Origin: an uncultured bacterium
GTDB taxonomy: Bacteria; Hydrothermota; Tepidihabitantia; B3-TA06; CAYQJV01
NCBI GenBank assembly: GCA_964417925.1
Contig: CAYQJV010000005.1
Span: forward strand, 176 to 64,175
Reading direction: 5' to 3'
DNA length: 64,000 nucleotides
Part shown: positions 24,553 to 51,646 of the stretch, piece by piece
Position numbering within the stretch: the first letter of the stretch is position 1
Layout of the letters: each line of letters opens with the position of its first letter
The notes under the pieces: model-generated
The model's database searches: none
Seen by the model: the letters and a program-made list of their open reading frames with translations, nothing else
What the model was told of the DNA's origin: nothing
Translations under genes and position numbers: made by a program

Positions 24553-24560
24553 ACTTCCTC

Positions 24561-25375: not shown

Positions 25376-25378
25376 TTT

Positions 25379-28305: not shown

Positions 28306-31300
28306 AAGAGAATAAAGTTTATATTCCTCTTGTACCTCCTACAGTATTAACTAAATACATAGAAACAAAAAATAACTTCATTACAAAAAGAAAATCTATT
28401 CTTCTATTAACCGACATCTCTGGTTTTACAAAGTATACAGAAAGTCTTGTAGGAAGGAAAAAAGAGAATATAGAAAACATAACGAAAATTCTTAACCAGC
28501 ATTTTGAAACCATGGATAAAGAAGTTTCAAGATATAAAGGCTTCCTGGTAAGGTATGCAGGGGATTCTATGCTTGCAATGTTTGGAGGAGAAAAAGCCCA
28601 AGAAAGGGCCATAGAGGCAGGATGGAGAATAATAGATTCCATGGAAAAATTAAAAAAAGAGGAAGGACTGGATATAAAGGTAATAATAGGTGGAGGTGAA
28701 TTTTACGAAATGGTACTTGGAGACGAAGAAAAAAGAGAGTGGGCAATAACAGGAAGAGTAATTTCAGAAATGGCATCGGTAGAAAAACAGGTAGAAGCTG
28801 GAAATGTAATGGTAAAAAAAGAAATATATCAGGAAAAATTCCCTGAAATAGAAGAACCTCCTAAGATAACTGTTGAAGATGTTAAAGTATTTTATCCCGC
28901 CTCTCTTGAAAGACTTCCAGATACCACATTTAGGGGAGAGTATAGAATTGCAGCTACTGTATTTATAAATATTTATGGCTATGATGAAGAAAATCCTCAA
29001 TTTGAAGAGTTAAACAACTTTTTCATCTATATAAAGAATCAGGCAAAAAAATATGGAGGAATAGTTAACAAAATAGATATACATCATGAAGGGATAAAGA
29101 TAATGGTCGTTTTCGGAGCTCCTTTTGCAATAGCAGAGGAATACTTGAAAGCAGTAGAATTTGCAAGAAAAATAGTACATTACAAAACATCTTTAAAAAC
29201 AAAAGGTACAGTAGGACATGGGTATGTGTATGCAGGCTTTATTGGAGGAGACAGAAAAGAATACACCATCATAGGAAGTTCTGTAAATACCTCTGCAAAA
29301 CTTTTGTCTTTTACTGCGAACAGAGAGATAATTATTTCTGAAGAGTTAAAAAAGAATCTTGAAGATGTTTATTCTTTCCTAAAGAAAGGGACCTTTGAAG
29401 TTCCTGGGATAGAAAAGAAAATTTGGTATTATAAATTACTGGATATAAAAAAAGAAAAAAAAGAAAAGATTACAGAATCCAGAGAAAAGATAATTAATAA
29501 AATTTTAAAAGAAATGGGAAAAAAAGAAAACAAAGTATTTATTATAGAAGGAGTAAGGGGGACAGGAAAATCTTTTATTGCAGATGCCATCATTCAAAAA
29601 TATAAAGGAAATTGGATTAATATAAGAGGAGAAGAAGGTATAGCCTATGAACTGTTCCGAAAGATTCTTGAAACAAATGCCGGGATTGAAATCCAGGATG
29701 ATAAAAAGAAAATTCAAAAAAAGTTAAATATGCATTTTCTATCGCTTAACCTCCCTCCTGAGTTTGAAAAAAAGATTCCCTTTATAGAAACTGTAATATT
29801 TGGGATTGAGCATCCAGAATTTATCATCACAAACTACCCTCCAGAACTGATAAAAGAAAACCTAAAAGAGGCATTCCGGATTTATTTAACACAGCTGTTT
29901 TATAATTCTCCTTTTCTATTGGTAGTGGATGACTTCCATAAAATGGATAAAGAAAGCATAGAAATTATCAGCCATTTTTTGAAAGGTATAGAACTGACAA
30001 AGGAAAAGGGAATTACAATGCTTTTTACGATGCTTCCCGAAGTTAACGAAACGTGGAAAGGCTATTCTAATGTGGAAATATTCAGGCTTCCAAGTTTTTC
30101 AAAAGAAGAGATAAAAGAACTGGGGCTTTTTTATTTCAACAAAGAACCTTCAGAAGATTTTGTTGAATTTTTATGGGGGAAAACCAAGGGGAACCCATCT
30201 TACACCATTCATATGATGGAACATATATTAAGAGAGCATCTCTTTAAAATAGATGAAAAGGTCCAACTTGCAGAAACAGCTAAACTCCAGGAAATACCTG
30301 AAACGGTGTATGGATTACTAATGTCTAAGGTTGATACTTTGCCCTTAGAAACCAAGGAGATTTTAAAAATAGGAGCAGTATACGGATTAAATTTTTCACT
30401 AAGCATTATCAAGAGGATCACCAAAAAGGAGAACATTCAATCCCTGCTCTCATTTGCATTAAAAGAAGGACTTATTTTAAAATTTTCAAATGGCGATGTA
30501 GAATATTTATTTGCAGAATCCATGACAAGAGAAGCGGTTTACAACTCTCTTTTATTGGAAGAAAGAAAAAAATTGCATAACCAGATTGCAGAAGAGGTTG
30601 AGAAAATGTATAAAGATACTGAAAGATTTTATCCTTTCCTTGCGCATCATTTCCATCAAGCAGAAATTTGGGAAAAAGCGTTCTGGTATTACTATCTTGC
30701 AGGAAAAGAAGATGCAAAATTCTATCGTAATGAACAAGCAGTAGAGAATCTTAGTAGAGCAATAGATATATGGAATGAAAAACTTGAAAATTCAGAGTAC
30801 AGAAAGGAAATATATGAATGCTATAAAACCAGAGGAATGGTAAATCTTTACTTAGGAAATCACCAGGATACATTGAATGATTTTTCAAAAGCAATTTCTT
30901 TTGCCAAGGAAAATAAAATGCTAAAAGAAGAAGTAGATTCTTTAAATAGATATGCAGATGTATTACTTGAGATAAGAAATAAAAAAGGTATAGATTATGC
31001 TACTCAAGCCCTTCAAAAAAGTAAAGAGATAGATTATATAAAAGGGATAGGCGATAGCTTCAGAGTAATGGGTAAGTACTACTTCTATATAGAAAATTCT
31101 CCTCAAAAATCCTTTGAATTCTTTAGTAAAGCAATGGAAAATTATTTGAGAGATCCTGCACTTAAAAAGGAATTGCTATCTGCATACATAGACCTTGCAG
31201 TAAATATGCGGAAACTTGCACAACCTCATAAAGCAGTAAAATTCTTTAACAAAGCAAAGGAACTTGCTGAAACCACAGGAGTGAAACATCTTGAACTTGT

Positions 31301-32708
31301 AACTTTAAGAAACATGGGGCATCTTTATTACGACGCAGGAGATATTAATAAAGCAGAAGAGTTATTGCAGAACGCTTTAAACATAGCTATGGAAATAGGG
31401 CATAGGGAAGAAAGTACAAAACTCATCACAGACCTTGCTAAAATAAAAATTACTCAGACGAAATTTAAAGAAGCAGTTGAACTACTCCAAAAGGCAAAGG
31501 AAAATCTACAATTTTTAAAATCAAAAAGGATTGAGGGTGAAATTGAAAAAGGACTTGGGTATGTAAACTTTTATACTGGAAACTATAATACTGCGTTAAT
31601 GCATTTTAAAGATGCAGCAAAAATATTTGAAGAAATAGATGAACCAAACGAACTTGTTGATTCCATGATAAACATTTCAATGATAGAAACTGTAAAAGAG
31701 GAGTTCAAAAAGGCACGTACGGATGTTGAAAAAACATTAGAAATAGCAAAAAGATTGAATAATCCATTTATTGAAGCTCAAGCTTTAAATATATTATCCA
31801 CCATACAACTCCATTACGGAGATTTTGAAAATGCGTATTCATCTGCAGAGCAATCAGTAGAAATAAGAAAGAAACTGAACGATCCCTGGGGAACTGCAGA
31901 AAGTCTTCTCACACTTATAGATGTCTGCTGGCAGATGGAACAATGGGAAAAGGGAATAGGATACTGTAATGAAACAGTTGAAATAGCAAGAACTCAGAAT
32001 CCTTTAATGGTATGTGATGCGATGAATGTAAAAGGAAGGATTCTTATAGACGCAGGTGACTATGAACAGGCGGAAAGAGTTTTATCTACTACCCTAAAAA
32101 TAGCAGAACAAACAAAAAGCATTGAGCATCTATTTAAAGTTCAATATAGCATTGGAAAGTTATACTTAGAACAAAAAAGGATAGAAAAAGTACTTGAAAT
32201 ACTGCCAAATCTTTATTCTGCCAACCAAAGTTTAAAATCGTATAACATAGATTTTCAAACTCGTATGATTTCTGCAGAAATTCACATAATCCAAAATAAT
32301 CCTAATGCATCCATTGAAGTATTAAAACCACCTGATGAGTGGGAAAAAGATAAACTCAGTTTTATCAACTTAATAGAAGGCTGGCTACTTTATACAAAAG
32401 CCCTCTTGGAAAAAAGAAACCTTGAGCTTGTGGAAGAATGCATAGTGAAATTAAAAAATATCATAAAAGGTAAAAATCTTTTATACAAGACCGCTTTAAT
32501 GCTTTTGTTAGAATACAATACTCAAAAATATAAATTGGAAAACAAGGCAAAGTTTGTACGTTTTATTATAAGTATGATAAACCCTTCGGTTAAAAGGATC
32601 TATAAAACACTACAAGAAGTTATAAAAAAGAAAGCAGATGAATTAAAGGAATTGAAGCCTTTTTATCTGAAAAAATGGGGTGCCATCCGATTTATAGATG
32701 AGAATTAG
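28302..32708 (+). CDS. 1468-aa signalling protein: tandem class-III nucleotidyl-cyclase homology domains + STAND/AAA NTPase + TPR repeats
   Basis: CHD1 has metal Asps (LLTDISGFT, YAGDSML); CHD2 lacks them but keeps GSSVNTSAKL (Asn, Lys); Walker A GVRGTGKS; long C-terminal TPR array. Confidence 0.8.
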   Translation: MKENKVYIPLVPPTVLTKYIETKNNFITKRKSILLLTDISGFTKYTESLVGRKKENIENITKILNQHFETMDKEVSRYKGFLVRYAGDSMLAMFGGEKAQERAIEAGWRIIDSMEKLKKEEGLDIKVIIGGGEFYEMVLGDEEKREWAITGRVISEMASVEKQVEAGNVMVKKEIYQEKFPEIEEPPKITVEDVKVFYPASLERLPDTTFRGEYRIAATVFINIYGYDEENPQFEELNNFFIYIKNQAKKYGGIVNKIDIHHEGIKIMVVFGAPFAIAEEYLKAVEFARKIVHYKTSLKTKGTVGHGYVYAGFIGGDRKEYTIIGSSVNTSAKLLSFTANREIIISEELKKNLEDVYSFLKKGTFEVPGIEKKIWYYKLLDIKKEKKEKITESREKIINKILKEMGKKENKVFIIEGVRGTGKSFIADAIIQKYKGNWINIRGEEGIAYELFRKILETNAGIEIQDDKKKIQKKLNMHFLSLNLPPEFEKKIPFIETVIFGIEHPEFIITNYPPELIKENLKEAFRIYLTQLFYNSPFLLVVDDFHKMDKESIEIISHFLKGIELTKEKGITMLFTMLPEVNETWKGYSNVEIFRLPSFSKEEIKELGLFYFNKEPSEDFVEFLWGKTKGNPSYTIHMMEHILREHLFKIDEKVQLAETAKLQEIPETVYGLLMSKVDTLPLETKEILKIGAVYGLNFSLSIIKRITKKENIQSLLSFALKEGLILKFSNGDVEYLFAESMTREAVYNSLLLEERKKLHNQIAEEVEKMYKDTERFYPFLAHHFHQAEIWEKAFWYYYLAGKEDAKFYRNEQAVENLSRAIDIWNEKLENSEYRKEIYECYKTRGMVNLYLGNHQDTLNDFSKAISFAKENKMLKEEVDSLNRYADVLLEIRNKKGIDYATQALQKSKEIDYIKGIGDSFRVMGKYYFYIENSPQKSFEFFSKAMENYLRDPALKKELLSAYIDLAVNMRKLAQPHKAVKFFNKAKELAETTGVKHLELVTLRNMGHLYYDAGDINKAEELLQNALNIAMEIGHREESTKLITDLAKIKITQTKFKEAVELLQKAKENLQFLKSKRIEGEIEKGLGYVNFYTGNYNTALMHFKDAAKIFEEIDEPNELVDSMINISMIETVKEEFKKARTDVEKTLEIAKRLNNPFIEAQALNILSTIQLHYGDFENAYSSAEQSVEIRKKLNDPWGTAESLLTLIDVCWQMEQWEKGIGYCNETVEIARTQNPLMVCDAMNVKGRILIDAGDYEQAERVLSTTLKIAEQTKSIEHLFKVQYSIGKLYLEQKRIEKVLEILPNLYSANQSLKSYNIDFQTRMISAEIHIIQNNPNASIEVLKPPDEWEKDKLSFINLIEGWLLYTKALLEKRNLELVEECIVKLKNIIKGKNLLYKTALMLLLEYNTQKYKLENKAKFVRFIISMINPSVKRIYKTLQEVIKKKADELKELKPFYLKKWGAIRFIDEN

Positions 32709-33639: not shown

Positions 33640-36600
33640 TCATACTACACTCTTTAACTCTTTGCTTAATCTTATGATCTCTCTTATAATAAATAGATTA
33701 TTATAAAATTTTCTTCTGTATTCCTGTGGAATGCTTTTTATCTCTTCTTTTAGAAATTCAAGAGATTTTTTTATATATTTTTTTGCATGCAAAATTTTTT
33801 TATGAAAAAGCAGTATGCGAATATGAACATATAAAAGTATTAATTCCCCTGCCTTTTCCTTCCTCTCCTCCCTTAAACTCTTACAGGAAAGGTAAAAAGC
33901 CTTAAGAGGAGCTTCCTCTATATAAGAAAGAGCAAGATAGGAGAGAAGGATGGGAAAATATCTTGTGTATCCTGTTTCTTGAGCAACTTTTATACATCTA
34001 TTTATAAGTTTTCTTGCCTTATCGTACTCTTTTTTAAGAAGCATCACCCACGAAAGATGTTTTAAGTTTTCCATTACCCAAGATTTGTCTCCTATTTTCT
34101 CAAAAATTACAAGTGATCCTTTTAAAAATCTTTCTGCCTTTTCCAACTCTCCGGTGTTTAAATACAAAAATCCAATATTTGAAAGCACGGAAGCAATTCC
34201 AGGCTTTTCATTGAGTTTCACTCTTATCCGATACGCCTCCCAGTAATATTTAAGAGCCTTCTCTAAATCTCCTAATCTCCCATATAAAGAGGCTAAGTTT
34301 GCATAACGGTATGCGGCGCTTCTGCGGTAGTTGAATTTAACTGCGTAATCCAGTACCTGTTCCATTACTTTTATCGCTTCCTTATATCTTTTCAAAAGTA
34401 TAAGCATCGTACCTTCATTTCCTTTTACCCTCAACCAAGTATGCATATCTCCTGATTTATACGCCATCTCTGCTGCTTCTTTAAAGTAGTGATACGCTCT
34501 ACCAAAGTCACCTTTATGGTAAAAGTACGTCGCTTTTTGAGCAAGAATATGGGCTTTTTGGTAAATATCCACCTTACCTGACTTTTCCGCTTTTTCTATC
34601 CATTCTGCTGCTTTTTCCAGTTCTCCCTCTGTGATAAGATACAACGAAAGATTTAACATGTTGCGGTAATCTTCACTTATGGAAGGAGAAGACTCTATTG
34701 CCTCGGCTGTCTCCTTTATGGCCTCCCGGATATTGCCAATTCGGTAAAGAACATTTCCATATTCGTATTTTACCAATTTATACAGTACTGGCAATTTATC
34801 TTTATGAAGCGTCACATCATTTTTTAGATTTTGAAAGATCTCCGCTGCTTTTTTGTTGTTTTCTAACACATACATCTCATACTCTGCAGTATAATAACGA
34901 AGTTTAAACCGATACTCTATTTCATTAAGCACTAGGGTGAGCCCTTCCATTACTTTAAGATAATAAAGAATCTTATCCCTTTTACGAAGTTTTATTAAAC
35001 TTTTTAAAATTTTCTCAATCAAAAGGAAACTTTCCTTATAAAGGCTTTTTTTATCAGTATAAACTTTATTCATGTTAACAAGTGCATTTTCATAAAACTT
35101 AAATGCCTCTTCAAATGAATAGTTGTGATACGCTCTATCTCCTGCCTCTATTAAATAAGGAAGTGCCTTTTCCCAATTCTCGGCTCTTGAATAGTGGAAA
35201 GCCACTGCTTCTATAAACTCCTTGTTGTAGTTCAACCGTTTTTCATACCACTCTGCTATCAAGTTATGGAACCTTCTCCTTTCTCTGAAAGGCAAAAGAT
35301 TGTAAGCAGTATTCCTTATAAGCTCATGTTTAAAAAGGTATTTAAGTCTTTCAGGTTCGTATATCAAGCCATAATTTTTTAAAGAATTAAGTACAAAACG
35401 AAGATTTTCTTTTATTTCTGGGTTAAGATATTCTGCTATCTTAAAATCAAACTCCTGTCCAACCACCGAAAGCCTCTTCAGTGTGTCCTTCTCTTCTGCA
35501 CCAAGAAGATCTATCCTTGCAAGGATAAGTGAATATATAGTAGAAGGAAATTCCTCCTTTTTCTCTGTTTTTAATACATGTTTAGTAAGTTCCTCCAAAA
35601 AGAATGGATTACCCGCACCTATCCTTATTACTTCTTCAGGAACCGAAACATCTCCTGCTATAGATTTTATGATTTTATCTGCACTTTCAGGTGAAATTTC
35701 TCTTAATCGGAGTTGAAACCTGTGTTGTAGTGTAGCAAATGACCTTTCAATTCTTTCCTCTGGCCTTTGGGAAATAATAAAAAGTATGGGGAATCCTTTT
35801 AAACCCGAGTAGAGATAGTTTATTAATTCTACAGTAGCATTATCAAGCCATTGTGCATCGTCAATTGCAAATATTGTGGGAGTCTCTTTTAATCTCTGTT
35901 TTAGGATATCAAGCACGAGTAAAGAAAATTTATCTTTTATATTGCTTATTGTAGGACTTTTATCTCCCTTCCATCCCAATACCTGCATGAAAAGCTCTCT
36001 TTCCCATTCTTCTTTACCCAGTCTTTTGAAGATTCTATCCATCTCTCTTCTATACCTTACTTCATCAAAACTGTATGGAAGAGTAAAAAAATCTTTAAAA
36101 AATGCTCTAAAAGGAAAATAAGGAACATCTTGATAGAATACAGAGCCTTTAAGCATGTATGTCTTTATACCTAATTTTTCGGCCTTTTTCTTTATCTCAT
36201 GAATAAACCTTGTTTTTCCCATCCCTGCTTGAGCAATTATATGAACTAAACTTCTATTACCTTCAATACTTTTTGATAATATTTGCATCACCTCCAATAC
36301 CTCTTTTTCTCGCCCTACAAAAGGAGTAAAATAGAAAGGTTTGCTCTTCTTTTCTTTTGTAAGAATCCAAGCATCCTTTAAAAAGTTTGTTTTCTCAAGT
36401 AACAGGGAGTGTTTCTTCTTAAATAAAAACAAAACTCCGCTTTTCTTTTTTACCTCATCCCCTACTAATACTTCCTCAACTTTTGCTATTCTAAGCAATC
36501 TTTCTGCCTTGTTCACCGAGTTTCCTATTATGGTAAACTCTTTTCTATTTTTACTTCCTATGGTTCCTGCAAAACTTCTACCCGATGTAACGGAAATTTT

Positions 36601-37578
36601 AAAAGCAACTTTTTTCTCTTCTAAAAACTTTTTAATCTCAAGACCCGCATAAAGAGCGGGAATCCCTGGTTCTTCTTTTAGCGCAGGTAATCCAAATACT
36701 GCCATTATTCGGCTACCTTTAAAATATGGCTCAACCTTATTTATGAATCCTCCAAATCTTTCCACTATCTCATCCACCTTACTAAATACCGCAGAGTAAA
36801 AATCCGCATCTATGGGAAGGTTCCACCAGTTTATAAACAACGTGGCCATATACCGATGTTCATCCGAAAAATCCATTATTTTGGAGTGCGGAAGAAATTT
36901 AAGCATCTGTTCCGTGTCCTTAAAATCAACCGTTGAAGTAAAAGATGGTATCTTTCTTGATATCTCAGAGATGTTTGGAAATTCTGATGGCTCTATTGCT
37001 CTATACCTTCCAATACGCCTACCTATGGGGTTCTTTGGACCCTTATTATAGAAACTCTCCACCACCACGATTTCTCCAGGTCTTGCTATAGCCTCTGCAA
37101 TCATTGCCTGGGATGGAACCTCTCCAATTATTACCCTCTCCTTCCTTTCTTTACCTTCAACCAGAATTTCATAAAATTCTCCTGCGCTTACTCCAGCAGA
37201 AACTGAAAGTATAAACTCCTTTCCATCTATATTTAATTTCTTTCTATGCCATTTTAAGATTACACTCTTCAGCAATGAGAGTACATCATCTCTATAATCC
37301 ATAGGAAAATAAAAAAGTAATCCATCCCCACTAAACTTCAAAAGCACTCCACCTCCCTCCCTCATGGAGGCGATGATATCTCCAAAATAATCGTTGAGTA
37401 TCTCAACAAGTTGTTCTATACCTTGAGAGCCTTTTTTATCAAAGTAATCGGTCAAGGCAGAAAAACCAGAAATATCCAAAAATATTATAATTCCTTGCTC
37501 TTTGATTTTCCCGCCCTTGTGTACCTTCTCTATAAAAGAGGTCATATCCTTGGGGAAATATACAGATATTTCATTCAT
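33640..37578 (-). CDS. 1312-aa paralogous tandem-cyclase-homology/STAND NTPase/TPR protein
   Basis: CHD1 IIFLDISGFS and FSGDGLL; CHD2 TIIGNSVNKAERL (Asn, Arg); Walker A AQAGMGKT; TPR-rich C-terminus. Confidence 0.8.
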   Translation of the reverse strand: MNEISVYFPKDMTSFIEKVHKGGKIKEQGIIIFLDISGFSALTDYFDKKGSQGIEQLVEILNDYFGDIIASMREGGGVLLKFSGDGLLFYFPMDYRDDVLSLLKSVILKWHRKKLNIDGKEFILSVSAGVSAGEFYEILVEGKERKERVIIGEVPSQAMIAEAIARPGEIVVVESFYNKGPKNPIGRRIGRYRAIEPSEFPNISEISRKIPSFTSTVDFKDTEQMLKFLPHSKIMDFSDEHRYMATLFINWWNLPIDADFYSAVFSKVDEIVERFGGFINKVEPYFKGSRIMAVFGLPALKEEPGIPALYAGLEIKKFLEEKKVAFKISVTSGRSFAGTIGSKNRKEFTIIGNSVNKAERLLRIAKVEEVLVGDEVKKKSGVLFLFKKKHSLLLEKTNFLKDAWILTKEKKSKPFYFTPFVGREKEVLEVMQILSKSIEGNRSLVHIIAQAGMGKTRFIHEIKKKAEKLGIKTYMLKGSVFYQDVPYFPFRAFFKDFFTLPYSFDEVRYRREMDRIFKRLGKEEWERELFMQVLGWKGDKSPTISNIKDKFSLLVLDILKQRLKETPTIFAIDDAQWLDNATVELINYLYSGLKGFPILFIISQRPEERIERSFATLQHRFQLRLREISPESADKIIKSIAGDVSVPEEVIRIGAGNPFFLEELTKHVLKTEKKEEFPSTIYSLILARIDLLGAEEKDTLKRLSVVGQEFDFKIAEYLNPEIKENLRFVLNSLKNYGLIYEPERLKYLFKHELIRNTAYNLLPFRERRRFHNLIAEWYEKRLNYNKEFIEAVAFHYSRAENWEKALPYLIEAGDRAYHNYSFEEAFKFYENALVNMNKVYTDKKSLYKESFLLIEKILKSLIKLRKRDKILYYLKVMEGLTLVLNEIEYRFKLRYYTAEYEMYVLENNKKAAEIFQNLKNDVTLHKDKLPVLYKLVKYEYGNVLYRIGNIREAIKETAEAIESSPSISEDYRNMLNLSLYLITEGELEKAAEWIEKAEKSGKVDIYQKAHILAQKATYFYHKGDFGRAYHYFKEAAEMAYKSGDMHTWLRVKGNEGTMLILLKRYKEAIKVMEQVLDYAVKFNYRRSAAYRYANLASLYGRLGDLEKALKYYWEAYRIRVKLNEKPGIASVLSNIGFLYLNTGELEKAERFLKGSLVIFEKIGDKSWVMENLKHLSWVMLLKKEYDKARKLINRCIKVAQETGYTRYFPILLSYLALSYIEEAPLKAFYLSCKSLREERKEKAGELILLYVHIRILLFHKKILHAKKYIKKSLEFLKEEIKSIPQEYRRKFYNNLFIIREIIRLSKELKSVV

Positions 37579-42860: not shown

Positions 42861-43325
42861 TTAAAGAGATTCCTCTTTAAAAAAAGTCTCCTTTACCACA
42901 ATTATTATAACAGAGATTACAATTGAAGCATCTGCAACATTGAAGGTATACCACCTCAGATTTCCTATGCCCATATCAATGAAATCAACCACCTTTCCTT
43001 TAACAACTCTATCAATGATGTTTCCCATTCCTCCTCCAAGAATCACTCCTAAAAGGACAAGATAAAATTTTGAGTCTGTTTTTGAAATAAGATAAATAAC
43101 AAATGCTATTCCTGCAACAGGAAGTATATAATAAATCCATGAAGGACCAAAAGAAAGTCCAAAAAGTCCTTTTTCATTGTAGAGAAAAGTTATTTTTATA
43201 TAGTCTCCTAATATTTTCACACTTTCATGAAGAAAAAGATTTTTAACTACTAAATACTTGGTAAATTGATCTACAAAGGTAACTATCATTGCAGGCAAAA
43301 ATGCATACACGATTTTCCTCATCAC
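42861..43325 (-). CDS. lspA: lipoprotein signal peptidase II
   Basis: Four TM, conserved NIIDR and FNVADASI motifs. Confidence 0.85.
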   Translation of the reverse strand: MMRKIVYAFLPAMIVTFVDQFTKYLVVKNLFLHESVKILGDYIKITFLYNEKGLFGLSFGPSWIYYILPVAGIAFVIYLISKTDSKFYLVLLGVILGGGMGNIIDRVVKGKVVDFIDMGIGNLRWYTFNVADASIVISVIIIVVKETFFKEESL

Positions 43326-44068
43326 TTAATTTTACTCTTTTTTACACTGAAGTCAAAAATATCAAAAGGAAAATACACTCTGTTTACATTGGTAACTCCA
43401 ACAAGAATGTTATCCAGAACCTTTCTATCTATTTTTTTTAACTCCTGTATTAACCTCCTTATCAATAACCTTTTATTCTCATTCTCATACGGACACTTAT
43501 TTTCAATCACTTTGATCTGCTTTTTTCTTGTATATTCTTCTATATCTTCCTCGGTAAAAAAATAGAGAGGGCGTATAATAAAAAACTTTCCTCCAAAAAA
43601 GTCCTGTTTTATCTTCATGGTTGCTATTTCTCTGTTAAAAAAAAGATTCATCAACAAAGATTCAACAACATCTTCTTTATGATGTCCAAGGGCAATCTTC
43701 TTTACCCCTTTCTCTTCTGCAATTTCAAAAAGCCTTTTTCTCTTTTCCCTTGAACATGCATAACATTTGGAACCTTCCTTATTAAAGGATGGTGAAATCT
43801 CCTCATGGTAAAACCTTATCCTTTTTTTATTGCAGAACCCCTCCAAATATCTAATCACTTCTTCATTTTTTCTAAAAATCTCTTGAAAATGCACTGCCTC
43901 TATCTCATATCCTTTGTTGTACTTCTCGTTGTATAAAGACAACAGAGATAAAAGTGTTAAACTATCCTTTCCTCCAGAAACTCCAACAATTATCCTTTCC
44001 TTTTCCTCTAATAATGAGTGCTTTTCTATTGCTTTTTTAAAAAGCCTTAGATAACGTTTTATCCAGAT
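43322..44068 (-). CDS. PP-loop ATPase, TtcA/TilS-like tRNA-modifying enzyme; PP-loop region lies upstream of any canonical start codon
   Basis: ORF track starts at TTG 43942, but in-frame upstream sequence encodes IIVGVSGGKDS (SGGxDS PP-loop) up to stop at 44075; CYAC Cys motif downstream; start likely ATC/ATA or sequence error. Confidence 0.55.
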   Translation of the reverse strand: MWIKRYLRLFKKAIEKHSLLEEKERIIVGVSGGKDSLTLLSLLSLYNEKYNKGYEIEAVHFQEIFRKNEEVIRYLEGFCNKKRIRFYHEEISPSFNKEGSKCYACSREKRKRLFEIAEEKGVKKIALGHHKEDVVESLLMNLFFNREIATMKIKQDFFGGKFFIIRPLYFFTEEDIEEYTRKKQIKVIENKCPYENENKRLLIRRLIQELKKIDRKVLDNILVGVTNVNRVYFPFDIFDFSVKKSKIK

Positions 44069-44074
44069 TTTATT

Positions 44075-45895
44075 TTAAGGCTTTAATTCTTCAGGCTTGG
44101 TCTCTTCTTTTTTAATCTCATGGTAGTACTCAAGACCTGTAAGTACTTTAAATTCAACTCTTCTATTCATTGCCATACCTTCCTCAGTATCATTAGGGGC
44201 TATAGGTTGAGTTGCTCCGTATCCTTTCGCTACAAGTCTGTCTGGAGAAATGTTAAACTTCTCAATCAAGTACTTCCTTACAGCTTCTGCTCTTGCCTGT
44301 GAAAGTTCCATGTTATTTTTGAACTCTTTGGTATGAATAGGTCTTGGGTCTGTATGACCCGCTATCTCAACCTTTATTGTAGGGTTTTCCAATAGAATCT
44401 TTCCTATACGATCCAAAATAGGATATGAGTCTGGCAACAATCTTGCCTTTCCAGTTTCAAAGTGAATGTTATGAAATACAATAACCTCTTTTTCCCTGAG
44501 CAAGGCAAAATCTTTAACAGTAGTCTTATCAGGCTCAACAACAACTTCTGCTTCTTGGGGGAAATACTTTGGATGTTTGGGTTCTACCTTTAATGTATAC
44601 TTTCCTCTGTAAAGAGAAGGAGTCTCATACTCTCCATTTTTTGTTTCCACCTTTCCTTTATCAGGACCATCATAGTATATAACTGCTTCCAGAGGTTTGT
44701 TGGTCTTGACATCATAAACTTTTCCTCTGATCTTTCCTGGAGGAATTTTAGCAAGTTCTATTATCTTCTGTGTAGTTTTACCTGCTTTTACTTCTGCTTC
44801 TGCAGTAGTAGAATAATAATCAAACATCTCCGCTTTAATTTGAACCTTCCCTGGTATTATACCTACCTTTCTCCACACACCTTTCTCAGAAAGTTTTACT
44901 TTTGTTTTAAGAACCCCTCTCATACTGATCTCAGCGGGTAAAGGCCTTTTAGTATCCCTATCTATCACCTTAACAACCAATACACCTGTTTTGGGCCTTT
45001 CACCAAACACATAGTTCAGCCCTATTCTATGAGTATTGCCAAGTATTCCAAACGGCTCTATAGTATAATCAATTCTTACATCTTTCTTTATTAAAAATCC
45101 AAGACCTGCAGTAAAACCACTTACAGGATTAAGCTGGTTTATACTTTTAGGCCCTGTAGAATATCCTATCCTTGCACTGGCATAGGGAGGAAGAAAGAAC
45201 TCTGCTCCCGCATGTATGGATGGAGAGTTATCAATTGGAAGATCAACATCTGTTACCAATGATAGCAGTTCTGAAGGTTTAAAACCTGTACCTATTCTTA
45301 TCCCCATGGGGAGCATGTAATTCCCTCCAGGATACCTCATGCCTGGGGATAGATTATACACCGTTATGCCCAATCCAACCTTTGAAAATCTTGCATGCCA
45401 CCCAATATCAACTGCGCCTCCGAAAGCTTGAACATCATACAGATCTTCATACAGTCCTTTTATCCCTATTCCCATGTTCGTATTTCCTAAAAACCTTCGG
45501 GTATAGGTGAAGATCACCAACCCTTCTTTAATAGAGATCACACTATCAGGAAGAGGAGTATTATCTTCATCCCAATGTTCTATTCCACCTGCAGTTGAAA
45601 AATTCATACCAAAACCTATGGTAGTGGTGGGAGAATTAGGCCATACGATTGCTAAAAATTCATCTCTAATTCCTTGCAACCATTCATGATGAACAGCCAT
45701 CAACTCCCATGTTTCCATTTGGTTAAGTCCAGCAGGATTCCACCATAGAGCATTAATATCATCGGCAAGTCCAACAAAGGCATTCCCCATTGCTGCTACT
45801 CTGGGGCCAACTCCTATCTTTAAAAATTGATGGGCAGTGGTTCCAACATCGGTACCATTGAATTGAGCAAAAATTAAAAAGTACAATAACATCAT
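44075..45895 (-). CDS. PorV-like beta-barrel fused to two CarboxypepD_reg-like domains and a C-terminal OmpA peptidoglycan-binding domain
   Basis: N-terminus FLKIGVGPRVAAMGNAFVGLADDINALWWNPAGL; C-terminus OmpA_C motifs (NMELSQARAEAVRKYLIE...NRRVEF). Confidence 0.6.
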   Translation of the reverse strand: MMLLYFLIFAQFNGTDVGTTAHQFLKIGVGPRVAAMGNAFVGLADDINALWWNPAGLNQMETWELMAVHHEWLQGIRDEFLAIVWPNSPTTTIGFGMNFSTAGGIEHWDEDNTPLPDSVISIKEGLVIFTYTRRFLGNTNMGIGIKGLYEDLYDVQAFGGAVDIGWHARFSKVGLGITVYNLSPGMRYPGGNYMLPMGIRIGTGFKPSELLSLVTDVDLPIDNSPSIHAGAEFFLPPYASARIGYSTGPKSINQLNPVSGFTAGLGFLIKKDVRIDYTIEPFGILGNTHRIGLNYVFGERPKTGVLVVKVIDRDTKRPLPAEISMRGVLKTKVKLSEKGVWRKVGIIPGKVQIKAEMFDYYSTTAEAEVKAGKTTQKIIELAKIPPGKIRGKVYDVKTNKPLEAVIYYDGPDKGKVETKNGEYETPSLYRGKYTLKVEPKHPKYFPQEAEVVVEPDKTTVKDFALLREKEVIVFHNIHFETGKARLLPDSYPILDRIGKILLENPTIKVEIAGHTDPRPIHTKEFKNNMELSQARAEAVRKYLIEKFNISPDRLVAKGYGATQPIAPNDTEEGMAMNRRVEFKVLTGLEYYHEIKKEETKPEELKP

Positions 45896-48800
45896 TCACC
45901 TCCTTTCCCTGAACATAGTGCTTTTTTAATTACCACTTTGCTTTTTACATCTTTAAACAACTCATTTTGTGTATCAGGTTCAAAAGTAAATACATATAAA
46001 TAAATTCCTGGAGCCACATGTTTTCCATGTTCGGTAGTTCCATCCCAATGTACCACATGGGTACCAAAAGAGTACCATTCATTTTCTATAAGTGTGGTGA
46101 TGTATTCTCCTGCTCTGTTGAATATCCTTAATGTTACTTTTCCATCTGCAGGAAGGGAGAAGAAGAAATCGGTCTCCTTTGAAAATGGATTTGGATAGTT
46201 ATGAATGTTAAACATAGGGATTACCACAGTCAAAAATGGAAGCGTATCTTTTATGGTCTTATCCTGTGAAGAAACTCCATATATAACCCTATTATCAATT
46301 CTCATTGTCTCCAATTCCTCTGTATCACCTGTGAACCGTTTTCCCGCCTCTGCAGGAGGAGTAACCCTTAAGATCAACTCCAGGGTATCAAATGGCAAAA
46401 TCTCTCCAGTATCTATTGTATCATTCCCATTATTATCCCTCAAAGGAATTCCTTGTGCATCAAGGATTTCCGCTCTCCAGAGCTGATTTCCTTGTGTCCA
46501 TAGGTCTATTGTATCCGGCTCATTACCTGTATTTATTACCCTAAAACCATACTCCTTATACTCTCCTGGATGTATGTATGCAGTATCCGGTGGTTCCATA
46601 AAGAATCCATAAAACCTTACAAGAACCTTTGTCCTGCACAAAGCTTCGTCAGTTACTCCTTCTTGAACTGAAGAATGCACAACCACATATGTTGAATCTA
46701 TTGCACCTTCCTGTTCTACAAAAGGAGGTATTAACTCTATAAAGAAGTCTCTCTTCCCAGATGGTTCTACAACTCCCACATCTGGCAAACCATCATCATC
46801 CGTATCTGAAAGTTCTGCTGTTCCCGAAGCATCCAATAGACGAATGTTCCATCCTTCCCTTGTACCATAAGTGGTAATCTCCAAAACATCTTCACTGTTT
46901 CCATTATTTTCCACAGTAAGTTGGTACCTTATTGGTTCTCCTGCGAATGTAGAGTCATAGTGATCAGGGTATATTCTCACCGCAGGCACAGGGACAACAA
47001 CCGTTATAATCACTGCAGAATCCTTAACAGTTGAGTTGTTGGTTGAATAAACCCAAACAATTGTAGTATCAGCATCTCCTGCCATTGCATTGGCAGGTGG
47101 TGTTACTCCAACGATAAAACTTTTAGTCCCTCCTTCTGGAGACACATATCCCACATCTACGAGTTCATCACCATTGGTATCCTGCAGAGGTTCCATATTC
47201 TCGTTCAGGATCCTTACCTGCCATCCAGAAGTTGTACCTTGTGTTTCTACATTTATAACATCCTCTCCAAAACCATTGTTGGTAATCACAAGGTTGTATA
47301 AGATTTCTTCTCCTGGATAGGTTGAATCACTCTGGTCGGGTTCTACAGAAATTGAAGGTCCGTAATAAATCCTTACTTCAAACAGCACGGGAAGTTCTGC
47401 TGCGTTATCAAACCATAGAGAAGCCTTGTACTGTATGTACCTTCTATTTGTTGTCTCTCCATTGTAATAGTCTGGCACTGACCTTCCTTTTTCAATTGGG
47501 ATCCATTCTGTCCAGGAATCATCTGGAGTTTCTGTATCACCGGTTCTTATATACATTTTTATCCTTGATTTTCCAGGACAACTATCCACCCAACTAACCA
47601 CATCCCAGTTCACTGTATCTCCTGCATCAAATACCGAGGAAATATAATCTTCGTAGTTTTCTCTTGAGTAAGTGTTTCCAACCTCCCAGAATATTGCATG
47701 GTGGTCTGTATGATTGGGAACCTCGGTTATTCTTTCAAAATCAGGGCCAAACAACAATCCACTGTATCCTCCGAGACTGATCCAGTCATTGATGAACATA
47801 TCAAGATGCCCATCTTTGTTAAAATCAGCAATAACTCCTCCACTCATTGACCATTTTTTAGGTCCAAGAGTTATCTTCTTATCTTCTGAGAATTTTCCAT
47901 TATCGTTGATGTATACCCATATTGGATTTAGATAGGTTTGATCCTCTGCATTTCCAACAAAAAATACAATATCCAACCATCCATCCCCATTTATATCTGC
48001 TGCTGCACTTCCTCCAAAACATTTTCCTGCTTGAAGAGTCTCAGGAGCTGAAAACTGCCTGTTACCCTTGCCATAGTATAGATATGCTACACTCACTTTT
48101 TCTAAACCCGTGAAAACCAGATCAAGCCATCCATCCTTATTAAAATCTGCAACTGTAAGACCATGTGCATTGGGTTGTAGATACATCAACTCTGTTCTAT
48201 TACTTGCACTGTATCCTTGAGGACCACCCCAATAGATATAGTTGGGAAGTTCTTGAAAAGGTTCATCCCGAGTTAAATAATTAACCACCACTATATCGTA
48301 GTAGCCGTCCTTATCCAGATCCGCCACTTCAAAATTATGCCTTGGAGTTAAAGCGGGTAGAATGGTAACACTGTCATAAGCAAAAGAGGAATCTCCCCAG
48401 AAAATTCCAAATGAACTCATCAAATCAGGATATCCTCCATGGATTATATCAAGCCATCCATCTCTGTTTAGATCAGCTACTGTAACTGCTTCAACCTGAG
48501 CAGCACATTCTCCTATAACTCTATAATTCTCGGGGGTTGGCCCACTATCTGTACCCCAGAAAAGGGTAATTCCACCTCTATCTGCAACTCCATAAAGCCT
48601 GTAATTCTGCAGTATTAGATCAGTATATCCATCAAGATTTAAATCACAACCCACAACATTTGCTCCTGCACCTGTTGGATAGGATAGTCTTCTCGTAGGT
48701 AAAAAGTATTCATCCTCTGGACCTCCGAGATACACGTATATGGAATCCTTAATCGGATCTTGACTCCCAAGCTCAACAATGTTAGATACAACTGCATCCA

Positions 48801-48978
48801 TCCAGCCATCACCATTAAAATCCCATCTCGGAATCCATTCCACATCTCCTGGAAGCGAATCGTGATAAGCCCTATGCGTTGCATAAAGATTGTGTTCATA
48901 TATTCCATCTCTGAAATCTTCTTGAGTAGTTTCAACCCATACGCCCCTTAGAGCAAAAATAAAATAGAAAACATACAT
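45892..48978 (-). CDS. FG-GAP/VCBS repeat beta-propeller protein with three CARDB-like domains and T9SS C-terminal sorting domain
   Basis: Six ADxNxDGxxD repeats, thrice-repeated about 100-aa Ig-like modules, CTD NYPNPFSKETDFFFSLPADGKVTLRIFNRAGE...GIYLYVF. Confidence 0.75.
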   Translation of the reverse strand: MYVFYFIFALRGVWVETTQEDFRDGIYEHNLYATHRAYHDSLPGDVEWIPRWDFNGDGWMDAVVSNIVELGSQDPIKDSIYVYLGGPEDEYFLPTRRLSYPTGAGANVVGCDLNLDGYTDLILQNYRLYGVADRGGITLFWGTDSGPTPENYRVIGECAAQVEAVTVADLNRDGWLDIIHGGYPDLMSSFGIFWGDSSFAYDSVTILPALTPRHNFEVADLDKDGYYDIVVVNYLTRDEPFQELPNYIYWGGPQGYSASNRTELMYLQPNAHGLTVADFNKDGWLDLVFTGLEKVSVAYLYYGKGNRQFSAPETLQAGKCFGGSAAADINGDGWLDIVFFVGNAEDQTYLNPIWVYINDNGKFSEDKKITLGPKKWSMSGGVIADFNKDGHLDMFINDWISLGGYSGLLFGPDFERITEVPNHTDHHAIFWEVGNTYSRENYEDYISSVFDAGDTVNWDVVSWVDSCPGKSRIKMYIRTGDTETPDDSWTEWIPIEKGRSVPDYYNGETTNRRYIQYKASLWFDNAAELPVLFEVRIYYGPSISVEPDQSDSTYPGEEILYNLVITNNGFGEDVINVETQGTTSGWQVRILNENMEPLQDTNGDELVDVGYVSPEGGTKSFIVGVTPPANAMAGDADTTIVWVYSTNNSTVKDSAVIITVVVPVPAVRIYPDHYDSTFAGEPIRYQLTVENNGNSEDVLEITTYGTREGWNIRLLDASGTAELSDTDDDGLPDVGVVEPSGKRDFFIELIPPFVEQEGAIDSTYVVVHSSVQEGVTDEALCRTKVLVRFYGFFMEPPDTAYIHPGEYKEYGFRVINTGNEPDTIDLWTQGNQLWRAEILDAQGIPLRDNNGNDTIDTGEILPFDTLELILRVTPPAEAGKRFTGDTEELETMRIDNRVIYGVSSQDKTIKDTLPFLTVVIPMFNIHNYPNPFSKETDFFFSLPADGKVTLRIFNRAGEYITTLIENEWYSFGTHVVHWDGTTEHGKHVAPGIYLYVFTFEPDTQNELFKDVKSKVVIKKALCSGKGGE

Positions 48979-48991: not shown

Positions 48992-50320
48992 TCAGGATTT
49001 TAACTTTAAAATCGTAACATTTATCCTTTTCTTATCTATCTTACCTACAAGAAAGTACATCCCTGCAGGATACGAAGAAAAATCTATGCAGATATTTCCA
49101 TATCCATTACAGGACAAAACCTTTCTTCCATTCACATCAAACACATCTACCGAATAACTTCTACATCCTTTATATAGGAAATATCTATCAATATAAAAGA
49201 CTTTTTTAAAAAGCCCCCCATCTTCGTTTTTCTCTTTAACTCCTACTGCATAGGAAGAACCATAAATATCCAGATTACCCTGCCTTTCATCAACCCATAC
49301 AACAAGAAATTCCTTTCCTGTATGAACAATATCAATTTTCTCATTCTCCACCACTGTATTTTTGAAAGAAAGCCTCCCAAGTAGCTCCCAGGTGGCTCCC
49401 CCATCGGTTGAAATGCTCATATAGATGTTTCCTCCTTCTACATAGTATGCAGCAAAAACTGTATCGTTTGCATAAGTTACAGCAATATTTTTGGTTGTAC
49501 ATTCAAACCCAGACACAGCAGAAACCTCAAATGAATTCCCTCCATCATGGGAGTATGCTACATATACGCATCCCTGGTCTCCAGTATACAGAGTAAAACC
49601 TACGTATACATCGTTACCAGAAAAATAAACACTTGAAATTTCCTCATCCCCAGGAAGAGAGGAAACTGTAACTGAAGGTGATACAGAATGCCCTAAGATT
49701 TTGCATCCTTCAATATTTCCTTCATGTTGGTATACAACAAAAGCAGAATTTCCATTTGAAGCAATCCTTGGATTACTTTCTTCATCCGCAGTAGCTGCAA
49801 TTTCTAAATTATAAACTCCTCCTGAAGTTATGCAGTACCCTCTTATATCAGGGTTGTCTGCCTGAGTTCTATCTTCATAAACTATGTATATTGTCCCATC
49901 ATTAAGCACACATATATCGGGAAGATAGGCATTACTCCAGTCCTCACCAGGAATATAATGCGTTTCCCAGTTCTTAGCTGTATCAGTGGATATATACCAG
50001 TGAGGTGCATTTCCTACCTCAGGTGAGGGATCCGGACCTTCACATACAAGATACAGCACATTATTATCATCAACTGCAAGGGATGGCCTCCTATTATCTG
50101 CTTGTGAAGCATACAAAAATGTGCCTTGATCTACCCATATACCATCAGGTATTTTAAGAGAAACGATAATATCATGTTCTGTAGTATATCTCGCATATTC
50201 ATAGGCAAGATAAAAGATGCCTGTAGAGGAGTTATACTCTACATCAGGATAAAAATCATCTGCAGAATGGGCTCTTATTGCCTGATCAAATTGCAAAAAA
50301 AGAAAAAAAATCCCCAGCAT
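48992..50320 (-). CDS. BNR/Asp-box (sialidase-like propeller) protein with T9SS-like C-terminal domain
   Basis: SISTDGGATWE, SHDGGNSFE, STDTAKNWE Asp-box repeats; C-terminal YSVDVFDVNGRKV...GMYFLVGKIDKKRINVTILKLKS. Confidence 0.7.
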   Translation of the reverse strand: MLGIFFLFLQFDQAIRAHSADDFYPDVEYNSSTGIFYLAYEYARYTTEHDIIVSLKIPDGIWVDQGTFLYASQADNRRPSLAVDDNNVLYLVCEGPDPSPEVGNAPHWYISTDTAKNWETHYIPGEDWSNAYLPDICVLNDGTIYIVYEDRTQADNPDIRGYCITSGGVYNLEIAATADEESNPRIASNGNSAFVVYQHEGNIEGCKILGHSVSPSVTVSSLPGDEEISSVYFSGNDVYVGFTLYTGDQGCVYVAYSHDGGNSFEVSAVSGFECTTKNIAVTYANDTVFAAYYVEGGNIYMSISTDGGATWELLGRLSFKNTVVENEKIDIVHTGKEFLVVWVDERQGNLDIYGSSYAVGVKEKNEDGGLFKKVFYIDRYFLYKGCRSYSVDVFDVNGRKVLSCNGYGNICIDFSSYPAGMYFLVGKIDKKRINVTILKLKS

Positions 50321-50328: not shown

Positions 50329-51609
50329 CTATTTAAGGACAATTAACCTCAGAGTAGCTTTTTGGGGCTTATCTATTTTTACAAAATATACCCCCTCACT
50401 AAGGAGATTTATCAAATATTCTGTACCTCTTTCTAACACAAATAGCCTTTCCCCATTCTTAGAATAAACTACCCCCTCAATCTCAGGAGGTAATCTATTA
50501 ATAAAGGTTTTTTTAAAAACATACTTTTCTCTACTTCTCTCCTCTATACCTGTTCCAGGACCTATTCCACATACAGTATCATTGTATACCATGTATAAAG
50601 TTCCATCCTTATCCATTGCCATAGGAAGATCTACTCTATCAAAGATACTTTTTTCCCAATGTTTAATACCATCTTTATCAAAGCAGTATAAAATCCCATA
50701 TGTAGATGCAACATATATGTTTTCCTTCCTATCTATCACTACAGGAGATACTATCTCTGTTCCGACTGGTTGCCTCCATTCAATACTGCCATCCTGTGGA
50801 TCGATTTTATACAGATTACCGTCATCTGAACCAATATATATGTATCCAGAACTTGCTACTGCAGGAGCACATTGTAGATTATAACCTATAGAGGTAAACC
50901 ACTGAGGTGTTCCTGAAGGAGAAAAACAATAAAGCACACCATCCTTCCCAGGCATTACAACATCTCCTGAATGAAGCAACGCCCCTGCTTCTGTTCCTCC
51001 ACCTGTGGGAACAAACCATTTCTGTGTGCCTGAAGGAGAAATACAAAAAACCCCTTGGTTTAATCCTCCATAAAATGACTGAACATATACATACCCTTCA
51101 TCATCCACTACCGGAGCAGAAGTCACTTCTTGCCCAAGGTTTATCTCCCATATTACAGAACGATTTGCAGCATTGATGGAAACAAGCATTGTCTCTGCTG
51201 CAAAGAAAAGTCTACCCTGACTGTATATAATTGGTGAAGTAATTCTATGCCCTATCTCCTTCCTCCAAACCTCCTCTCCACTCAGTCTACTCACTGCATA
51301 TAGGGTTCCATCAAAAGAACCTACATAGACTGTATCCTCCAGGATAATCGGAGTAGAGGTGATAAGGCCTTGAGTCAAAAATTTCCACCTCTCATTGCCT
51401 GAAGAATCTACAGAAATCAAGTATCCTGTTTGGGTACCGAAAAATAAATTTCCATCTTCATCAATCACAACCCCAGTGAGTATCTTATACCCACTGCCTT
51501 TTTTCCACTTTATTATAGGAGCATCAGGACCTATGGCCTCCCCCCTTCCACTGTGATAATAATCATGCTGGAACATAGGCCAAGGGTGGAGAAACAACCA
51601 CAAAACCAT
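50329..51609 (-). CDS. PQQ-like beta-propeller repeat protein with short T9SS-like C-terminal domain
   Basis: Eight or more repeats of G.LYA....G...W type; C-terminus VVYSKNGERLFVL...GVYFVKIDKPQKATLRLIVLK; N-terminal signal peptide weak. Confidence 0.65.
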   Translation of the reverse strand: MVLWLFLHPWPMFQHDYYHSGRGEAIGPDAPIIKWKKGSGYKILTGVVIDEDGNLFFGTQTGYLISVDSSGNERWKFLTQGLITSTPIILEDTVYVGSFDGTLYAVSRLSGEEVWRKEIGHRITSPIIYSQGRLFFAAETMLVSINAANRSVIWEINLGQEVTSAPVVDDEGYVYVQSFYGGLNQGVFCISPSGTQKWFVPTGGGTEAGALLHSGDVVMPGKDGVLYCFSPSGTPQWFTSIGYNLQCAPAVASSGYIYIGSDDGNLYKIDPQDGSIEWRQPVGTEIVSPVVIDRKENIYVASTYGILYCFDKDGIKHWEKSIFDRVDLPMAMDKDGTLYMVYNDTVCGIGPGTGIEERSREKYVFKKTFINRLPPEIEGVVYSKNGERLFVLERGTEYLINLLSEGVYFVKIDKPQKATLRLIVLK

Positions 51610-51618: not shown

Positions 51619-51646
51619 AATATATACCTTTTTTGGAATTTGTCAA
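51619..51646 (-). promoter_or_regulatory. sigma70-like promoter on minus strand (TTGACA at 51641-51646, TATATT at 51619-51624) giving a near-leaderless transcript for 50329-51609
   Basis: Consensus -35, 16-bp spacer, -10 hexamer ending about 10 nt before the ATG; no SD. Confidence 0.4.

Follow-up and report, generated by a model that had tools for sequence, protein, structure and literature searches.

Why should an outer-membrane barrel of the PorV/PorQ family carry a peptidoglycan-binding domain in the same chain, and what does such a protein do for the gene that precedes it? The question is raised by a gene at positions 44075..45895 (minus strand) of contig CAYQJV010000005.1 from an uncultured WOR-3 bacterium, as numbered in the 64,000-nucleotide (nt) stretch that we refer to as the window. 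The gene encodes a protein of 606 amino acids (aa) in which a PorV/PorQ-family barrel is followed by two carboxypeptidase-regulatory domains (CarboxypepD_reg; abbreviated CRD) and an OmpA-like C-terminal domain (OmpA_C). We found that this architecture is conserved and that, at every locus with enough upstream DNA, the gene directly before it encodes a large protein whose C-terminal domain (CTD) is of one conserved kind. With slightly better than even confidence, we propose that the 606-aa protein is a dedicated docking barrel for this upstream surface protein, fixed to peptidoglycan, and that it is a one-chain equivalent of the PorQ-PorZ and PorP-PorE arrangements.

Domain layout and predicted fold of the 606-aa protein

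A sequence-only reading of this DNA had described a PorV-like barrel fused to CarboxypepD_reg domains and an OmpA domain, and profile searches bore out each of these domains (NF033709, PF13620, and PF00691). The NCBIfam model of the PorV/PorQ family, NF033709, has a cut-off of 90 bits; it matched residues 19 to 297 (45005..45841, minus strand, as are all parts of this gene) at 132.1 bits (E 3.3e-38) when the whole protein was searched, and it matched the barrel part alone at 135.7 bits. In Pfam, CarboxypepD_reg (PF13620) scored 39.4 bits against a cut-off of 32.3, aligning to two stretches of which the better was residues 389 to 465, where PF13715 also matched at 30.5 bits. OmpA (PF00691) matched residues 479 to 578 at 76.2 bits (E 2.7e-21) against a cut-off of 27.2, so that the OmpA call is strongly supported.

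The fold predicted by AlphaFold2, for which an alignment of 39 orthologues served as input, has a mean pLDDT (predicted local distance difference test score) of 84. The model places a short signal peptide and an N-terminal segment ahead of 14 β strands at residues 62 to 299, with pLDDT values mostly >85 in this FadL-type barrel. Two β-sandwich domains follow. The first, at residues 304 to 381 (44753..44986), is predicted with a pLDDT of ~93 to be an immunoglobulin (Ig)-like, CarboxypepD_reg-like domain, and the second, at residues 387 to 465 (44501..44737), is the one recognized by PF13620 and PF13715. The chain ends in an OmpA-like α/β domain at residues 477 to 586 (44138..44467). Among the Foldseek matches that cover the barrel region, the top solved structures were Flavobacterium johnsoniae PorV (8gl6_F; E 9e-12) and PorV 6h3i_F (E 3e-10; TM [template modeling] score, 0.66), and a profile of the family found the PorV sequence 6h3i_F at E 3.8e-14. 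PorV outranked FadL and TodX for this region in both sequence and fold searches. The N-terminal half is thus predicted to be a barrel of the PorV kind, which was one of the two points on which the earlier description stood or fell, the other being the OmpA call.

The signal peptide, read directly from the sequence, is short (MMLLYFLIFAQ, 45863..45895, with a putative cleavage site before the following F) and contains no lipobox cysteine. It is comparable with the N termini of the orthologues in the alignment, which read MKK...AFAQ and then F. A longer N terminus was ruled out, because the open reading frame (ORF) is already maximal and overlaps the stop codon of the upstream gene; the ATG of the barrel gene forms the sequence ATGA with that stop, and GGAGG lies just 5' of it.

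A 14-stranded outer-membrane barrel has both of its ends on the periplasmic side, so the CRD-CRD-OmpA tail must be periplasmic. In the predicted model, this placing is consistent with wall binding. The OmpA_C domain also carries the residues expected for that role. G513 and D516 (in GHTD) and N577-R578-R579 (in NRRVEF) are invariant across the 39 orthologues, and H514, T515, and E581 are conserved in at least 90% of them. Residues 528 to 543 contain the Koebnik motif N-x2-L-S-x2-R-A-x2-V-x3-L, the classical motif of the OmpA family, whose significance is established for that family. In Foldseek searches the tail superposed on OmpA_C domains at 1.7 to 3 Å, with a root mean square deviation of 1.7 Å for the A. 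baumannii domain 3td3. These likenesses suggest that the domain would bind diaminopimelate (DAP)-type peptidoglycan. Strain sy37, a cultured member of WOR-3, possesses two membranes and a complete gene set for making DAP-type peptidoglycan (PMC12285271), and the peptidoglycan-binding residues of PorE are essential for PorE function (PMC12773672).

PorE is also the protein to which profile searches connect the tail. The second CRD and the OmpA_C domain together matched positions 425 to 599 of the 648-position PorE model NF052230 at 77.7 bits, and the family profile found the solved C-terminal domain of PorE (6top) at E 4.5e-17. The full PorE architecture is not present: the cut-off of NF052230 is 600 bits, and only the CRD+OmpA_C part aligned. 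Outside the family, many of the relatives nearest to the tail in reference genomes are CRD+OmpA matches that come from Bacteroidota, Chlorobiota, and Ignavibacteria. Of six such relatives checked, five align over long stretches with the PorE model and also with the CHU_0125 model, in each case below the cut-off; one from Mucilaginibacter scored 332.6 bits with the PorE model and 344.7 bits with the CHU_0125 model.

Stricter tests placed the barrel outside the named families. Searched alone, it scored 40.6 bits with the PorV equivalog NF033710 (cut-off, 250), 74.0 bits with the PorQ equivalog NF033711 (cut-off, 220), and 46.9 bits with the PorV2 equivalog (cut-off, 325). PF11751 gave no PorP/SprF match in the Pfam scan at E up to 1, nor did any PorP/SprF model of NCBIfam match the barrel when E values up to 10 were allowed. 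Judged by these profile matches, the 606-aa protein combines a barrel of the PorV/PorQ type with the part of a PorE-like protein that binds the wall, at its C terminus, and by the same models it is a strict member of neither PorV nor PorQ, PorP, or PorE.

The FadL-like fold would also suit a FadL-type channel for hydrophobic molecules or, given that in the β-barrel assembly machinery (BAM) of Bacteroidota a surface lipoprotein is held by the FadL-family barrel BamG (PMC12611786), an accessory BAM barrel resembling BamG, with the wall anchor being incidental in either case. We consider such a role extremely unlikely. The FadL/TodX model PF03349 (Toluene_X) gave 10.4 bits against a cut-off of 29.7, which limits the likeness to the level of the fold, the BamG model NF053685 did not match the barrel at E up to 10, and PorV stands ahead of FadL and TodX in the searches described above.

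Conservation and taxonomic range

A search of 5.8 billion proteins returned ~40 full-length relatives, which are 577 to 644 aa long and share 36 to 100% identity. An exhaustive hidden Markov model search of 1.84 billion cluster representatives (a 50%-identity library) gave ~31 full-length representatives, counted as matches listed in a single stretch, and the same search listed many barrels bearing other C-terminal extensions. We considered whether the fusion might be an artifact of gene fusion or assembly; this was ruled out by the equal length and architecture of the ~40 orthologues, which come from independent assemblies. The barrel-CRD-CRD-OmpA protein is a real, conserved family.

Among GTDB genomes, with one genome per species, full-length copies were present only in metagenome-assembled genomes (MAGs) labeled WOR-3 or “uncultured bacterium” and in one labeled Cloacimonadota. 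WOR-3 is now named phylum Caldifarciminota at NCBI and is not placed within Bacteroidota. The relatives that have names are called “PorV/PorQ family protein” of candidate division WOR-3 (NCBI) or OmpA-like proteins (JGI). Databases therefore already carry generic labels for the family. Our literature search found no paper describing a fusion of a PorV/PorQ barrel with OmpA, and no anchoring complex of the PorQ-PorZ or PorP-PorE kind has been described in the WOR-3 phylum.

Strict pairing with the upstream gene

The barrel gene is the last of four close-packed minus-strand genes, in the order PQQ, BNR, FG-GAP, and barrel, as the sequence-only reading had correctly given it. The intervening gaps of 8, 13, and -4 nt make a four-gene operon likely. 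The first gene (50329..51609) encodes a PQQ/BamB-like β-propeller protein (PF13360, 112 bits), and the second (48992..50320) encodes a BNR/sialidase-like propeller protein with a near-threshold type A CTD. The third (45892..48978) encodes the cognate partner, a 1028-aa FG-GAP protein (FG-GAP_3 in Pfam, 119 bits). The ATGA overlap between the FG-GAP and barrel genes, with GGAGG just upstream, suggests that the two are translationally coupled. Upstream of the PQQ gene there is a promoter-like site, TTGACA-16-TATATT (51619..51646, minus strand), which is a match to the consensus only and not evidence of function; a terminator scan of the 132-nt gap 3' of the barrel gene reported none, every site found being intragenic.

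The link between the last two genes extends well beyond the window. Fourteen loci had enough upstream DNA to be assessed (L002, L003, L004, L005, L006, and L008 plus eight further reference genomes), and in all 14 a large-protein gene with one conserved CTD lay directly upstream of the barrel gene, at a spacing that ranged from a 4-nt overlap to a gap of ~145 nt. The other flanking genes vary among these loci, and the gene for the large CTD protein is constant. The entire four-gene block is kept at L002/L003 (53% identity), where a 480-aa protein with a weak FlgD_ig tail occupies the position of the BNR gene. The PQQ and BNR genes are kept only in these closer relatives, apart from a PQQ orthologue with a FlgD_ig tail at L004, and both are absent from L005, L006, and L008.

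These observations divide two claims that had been made from the sequence. The idea that cargo is paired with a dedicated PorV-like protein is strongly supported by synteny for the adjacent FG-GAP gene (14/14 loci), but not for the PQQ and BNR genes. All three upstream genes had further been called type IX secretion system (T9SS) cargo genes; a CTD of that system is clear and conserved in the FG-GAP protein, falls just below threshold in the BNR protein (Por_Secre_tail, 24.9 bits against a cut-off of 27; TIGR04183, 20.3 against 23), and is weak in the PQQ protein (Por_Secre_tail, 13.3 bits, E 0.11).

The pairing bears directly on whether the 606-aa protein might be a general tether between outer membrane and peptidoglycan, in the role of OmpA, OprF, or Pal, with the barrel acting only as a membrane anchor and the FG-GAP gene merely being coexpressed. 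Such a tether would be expected to have this layout, with the OmpA_C domain behind a barrel and its binding motifs intact, and one distant PorV+OmpA fusion, P0041, has no candidate partner gene upstream. However, the barrel belongs to the CTD-binding PorV/PorQ family and not to the 8-stranded OmpA family, its pairing with one conserved CTD protein persists in 14/14 loci despite changing flanks, and some genomes have two paralogues, each behind its own large secreted protein. We therefore regard a general tether as unlikely.

One such duplication was seen on L004, a contig that bears an orthologue. In a module at 11995-16992 (plus strand), a second PorV-family+OmpA fusion (536 aa; NF033709, 109.6 bits) is preceded by a PQQ propeller gene and a gene for a 755-aa secreted protein, and the module is thus duplicated within the genome. 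Such a repeat is more readily expected of dedicated anchors than of one housekeeping tether. The reference MAG CBDUZK01 also has two copies of the fusion (L015 and L017).

Apart from P0041, which has no candidate partner, other distant PorV+OmpA fusions vary in what precedes them. One has a gene for a 1245-aa PKD protein 475 nt upstream. In an Elusimicrobia MAG (L007, 7285-10037, plus strand), the gene for a 678-aa PorV-family+OmpA fusion has a 4-nt overlap with a gene for a 239-aa FlgD_ig-tailed protein, and an AsmA/YhdP-like gene follows. The L007 arrangement extends the pairing of CTD and barrel to a phylum that is not listed among those with a T9SS.

The partner protein and its CTD

Complete partners across the loci are 1028 to 1227 aa long, are mostly FG-GAP proteins, and have the N-terminal motif W-x-ETT-x-DF-x-DG in common; full-length members of the partner family are about as many as those of the barrel family. 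The AlphaFold2 model of the window partner (pLDDT 82) predicts a β-propeller head, a leg of β-sandwich domains, and the CTD. Its best Foldseek matches are the ectodomains of integrin alpha chains (E ~1e-17), and in this search of the whole model such integrin-like whole-chain matches swamped any at the level of the CTD. Whole-protein searches of the partner gave no match to the PorZ or PorU models and no peptidase domain.

The CTD comprises the last 110 aa of the window partner (45895..46224, minus strand; HNYPNPF...FSLP...G.V.L.I.NR.GE...WDG...APG.YLY.F...KK). It is conserved over ~105 aa, with 50% mean column identity in the alignment of partner CTDs (A2). We compared 14 isolated partner CTDs with models of known classes. 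All 14 matched the C terminus of the PorU model (positions 997-1086; best E 7e-11), and the PorZ CTD in NCBIfam was matched by half of them (7). The type A model TIGR04183 was matched by 12 at E up to 1 (best, 3.1e-8), with the CTD of the window partner at 21.5 bits against a cut-off of 23. In the reverse direction, the A2 profile found residues 1057-1154 of the solved PorU chain 6za2_A at E 3e-5.

Pfam gave a different impression, with FlgD_ig and CHU_C matching 14/14 of the CTDs and Por_Secre_tail matching 1/14. The CHU_C matches pointed to a type B CTD and membership in the SprF system, an assignment that we rejected, as the type B model TIGR04131 was essentially unmatched (one of the 14, at E 0.089); the likeness to SprF is kept only as an analogy of how the parts would work. 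CHU_C matches are nonspecific, because the clear type A CTD of a 577-aa protein encoded elsewhere in the window (22138-23871, minus strand; Por_Secre_tail, 39.1 bits) passes CHU_C too; the two Pfam models, Por_Secre_tail and CHU_C, therefore cross-hit. From these profile comparisons, the partner CTD appears to be related to type A, with the CTDs of PorU and PorZ as its closest likenesses. In PorU and PorZ, the CTDs stay on after secretion (PMC11285876), and the two proteins are anchored on the surface by PorV and PorQ, respectively (PMC12365241).

Proposed role and comparison with known systems

We propose the following mechanism. The N-terminal half of the 606-aa protein would form a 14-stranded barrel of the PorV/PorQ type in the outer membrane, a periplasmic spacer would be made by the two Ig-like CRD domains, and the OmpA_C domain would bind DAP-type peptidoglycan. 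The partner would be exported across the outer membrane, with its FG-GAP propeller head set on a β-sandwich leg in a form resembling integrin alpha. Its PorU/PorZ-like CTD, remaining uncleaved, would then bind the extracellular face of the barrel and keep the partner on the cell surface. The outcome would be one static chain that runs from the surface head through the outer-membrane barrel to the cell wall. Every rival explanation that we considered accounts less well for the strict pairing than does a docking barrel.

The proposed arrangement resembles PorQ-PorZ and PorV-PorU in having a 14-stranded barrel of the PorV/PorQ family, a propeller-containing surface protein, and, as we suppose for the window partner, an uncleaved CTD (PMC12365241; PMC11285876). 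It differs from them in that the barrel and partner genes are adjacent, the barrel has its own peptidoglycan anchor, the partner is neither PorZ nor PorU, and the host belongs to WOR-3 and not to Bacteroidota.

Wall-anchored barrels are known from two other cases. In Porphyromonas gingivalis, PorE bridges peptidoglycan to the PorP barrel, and PorP holds PG1035; the PorP-PorE-PG1035 complex associates with PorK and PorN, and the suggestion has been made that it ties the rings to peptidoglycan (PMC9143113). Five operons of F. johnsoniae encode a substrate, its cognate SprF-like barrel, and a PorE-like protein, for which the worked example, in that order, is Fjoh_3952, Fjoh_3951, and Fjoh_3950; static wall-anchored complexes were proposed for these operons, whereas mobile adhesins such as SprB have no PorE-like gene (PMC12618676). 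The window locus has in common with both cases a surface protein on a FadL-family barrel and a CRD+OmpA_C bridge to peptidoglycan, and it follows the gene order of the Fjoh example (substrate, barrel, wall anchor) with the last two merged into one gene. The differences lie in the barrel, which in the window is of the PorV/PorQ family, and in the CTD, which appears to be related to type A, whereas the substrates of the F. johnsoniae operons are type B. The 606-aa protein shares the CRD+OmpA_C module with PorE itself (PG1058) but has no tetratricopeptide repeats (TPR), no β-propeller/WD40 domain, and no lipobox, and its N-terminal part is a predicted transmembrane barrel.

Two further comparisons are instructive. 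The porins OmpA and OprF, like the 606-aa protein, carry a periplasmic OmpA_C domain behind their outer-membrane barrel. Compared with OmpA, however, the window barrel is of the 14-stranded FadL/PorV type and not 8-stranded, two Ig-like spacers are inserted, and there is a specific secreted partner. BamG-BamH resembles the proposed pair in its use of a FadL-family barrel as a docking pillar for a surface-exposed protein (PMC12611786), but BamH is a lipoprotein held by its N terminus, whereas the window partner would be held by its C-terminal domain.

The likeness to PorP and PorE could be taken further, such that the 606-aa protein would be a core part of a type IX-like machine of WOR-3, a fused PorP+PorE that fixes the secretion apparatus, with the FG-GAP protein as a PG1035-like cap. 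The association of PorP-PorE-PG1035 with PorK and PorN (PMC9143113) speaks for this possibility. We consider it quite unlikely, since no SprA/Sov, PorK, PorL, PorM, or PorN gene was found in the 64-kb window or in the fetched WOR-3 loci, and the latter contain no SprA-sized ORF. In addition, no PorP/SprF model matched, there are up to two paralogues per genome, and the partner is a large, well-conserved, adhesin-like protein and not a small cap.

The docking-barrel proposal must itself be set against several observations that count against it. The lack of T9SS core genes in the window and the fetched WOR-3 loci is one of them. The WOR-3 relative L005 encodes, two genes from its barrel gene (13372-16839, minus strand), a 1155-aa protein with Propeptide_C25 and Peptidase_C25 domains and a type A CTD; this is the only PorU-like C25 peptidase nearby, and it scores 95 bits against an equivalog cut-off of 420. 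The match of the partner CTDs to the CTD of PorU may reflect general similarity to type A, which 12 of the 14 match through TIGR04183, and not a “retained” class. The fusion P0041 has no partner gene. Finally, P. gingivalis can do without the CRD domain of PorE (PMC12773672), and for this reason the spacer role of the CRD domains is an assumption. A literature search pairing WOR-3 with T9SS found nothing, and two WOR-3 genome descriptions, one of them PMC12285271, do not mention secretion. The use of “T9SS” as a label for the system in this organism is thus an extrapolation.

Other PorV-family barrels and neighboring genes in the window

The 606-aa protein had been called the third PorV/PorQ protein in 40 kb, and this count was confirmed: the ORFs at 6976-7956 (144.7 bits) and 14346-15395 (182.8 bits) also pass NF033709. 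Both belong to a region (6976-21158, minus strand) that consists of two tandem copies of a three-gene cassette. The first gene of each cassette (18411-21158 and 11160-14264) encodes a SusC-like TonB-dependent receptor that contains CarboxypepD_reg and Plug domains. The second encodes a protein of ~1000 aa that has no Pfam family and ends in a CTD-like tail, VVPNPY...W.L...G.YI (15401-18397 and 7974-11138), and the third is the gene for the PorV/PorQ-family barrel, which in these cases is tail-less. A TonB/ExbB cluster (23935-26005) lies just upstream of the cassettes.

The expectation that each PorV-family gene neighbors a CTD gene was also borne out in the window, where 3/3 follow a large gene with a CTD-like tail. 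The two cassette tails are 40% identical to each other, and BLAST detects a resemblance among the three barrel-adjacent tails (E 1e-4 to 3e-25, the set compared being very small). Pfam recognition of the tails of the 998-aa and 1054-aa proteins is weak (17 and 13 bits). All three exceed in length the short type A tails of the BNR, PQQ, and 577-aa proteins and of a clostripain-like C11 peptidase (4992-6941, minus strand) whose type A CTD is clear (Por_Secre_tail, 28.3 bits); no barrel gene adjoins any of these four in that manner. The window may therefore hold two classes of CTD, one long and barrel-paired and the other short and unpaired, a distinction that we offer as a lead and not as a result.

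The presence of several type A CTD proteins in the window, together with membership of the barrel in the PorV/PorQ family and PorV as its best solved-structure match, could suggest a general PorV shuttle that carries all type A CTD cargo from translocon to sortase. Of the two roles first suggested for the protein, “shuttle or anchor,” the evidence favors the latter. A shuttle is very unlikely because a peptidoglycan-fixed barrel cannot diffuse between the translocon and the attachment site, and a covalent peptidoglycan anchor is incompatible with lateral shuttling. Moreover, the barrel falls far below the PorV equivalog cut-off, two tail-less PorV-family barrels are encoded in the same window, and the gene is tied to one specific partner.

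Immediately downstream of the barrel gene, and in the same reading frame, is a PP-loop (TtcA/TilS-like) gene (43943-44074 and 43322-43942, minus strand). Its SGGKDS signature lies 5' of the first canonical start codon (TTG at 43942). Judging from the sequence, the real start is probably a noncanonical ATA or ATT that follows the purine-rich stretch AAGGAAAGG; automatic gene calls (190-206 aa) consequently lose the motif. Elsewhere in the window, the genes at 28302-32708 (plus strand) and 33640-37578 (minus strand) encode paralogues of 1468 and 1312 aa, each with an adenylate/guanylate cyclase domain, an AAA_16 ATPase domain, and long TPR arrays. They converge on a 287-aa ORF that has no family match.

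Implications

A model in which FadL-family barrels, bridged to peptidoglycan, hold nonmobile surface proteins currently rests on pull-downs from two Bacteroidota species. A natural single chain that unites a presumed CTD-docking barrel with PorE's wall-binding end would provide independent support for this static-anchor model, in the style of a “Rosetta stone.” It would also extend the principle to the PorV/PorQ branch of FadL-family barrels, to a CTD that appears related to type A and resembles the CTDs of PorU and PorZ most closely, and to WOR-3, a little-studied phylum of which a member is now in culture. For uncultured bacteria, the locus suggests a genomic rule by which pairs of surface protein and anchor may be recognized, namely, a long CTD of the PorU/PorZ-like class followed immediately by a PorV-family barrel. 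A one-chain anchor could in addition serve surface-display engineering.

A bolder reading, which we put forward as a speculation with the odds against it, concerns WOR-3, for which no T9SS has been described, and possibly Elusimicrobia as well. Barrels paired there with PorU/PorZ-like CTD proteins would be self-contained, wall-bolted display modules that are independent of the Bacteroidota T9SS core. If this were true, the docking of CTDs on barrels would predate the T9SS and reach more widely than it does, and an external ligand would be connected mechanically, without a break, to peptidoglycan through the integrin-like partner, the barrel, and the OmpA tail.

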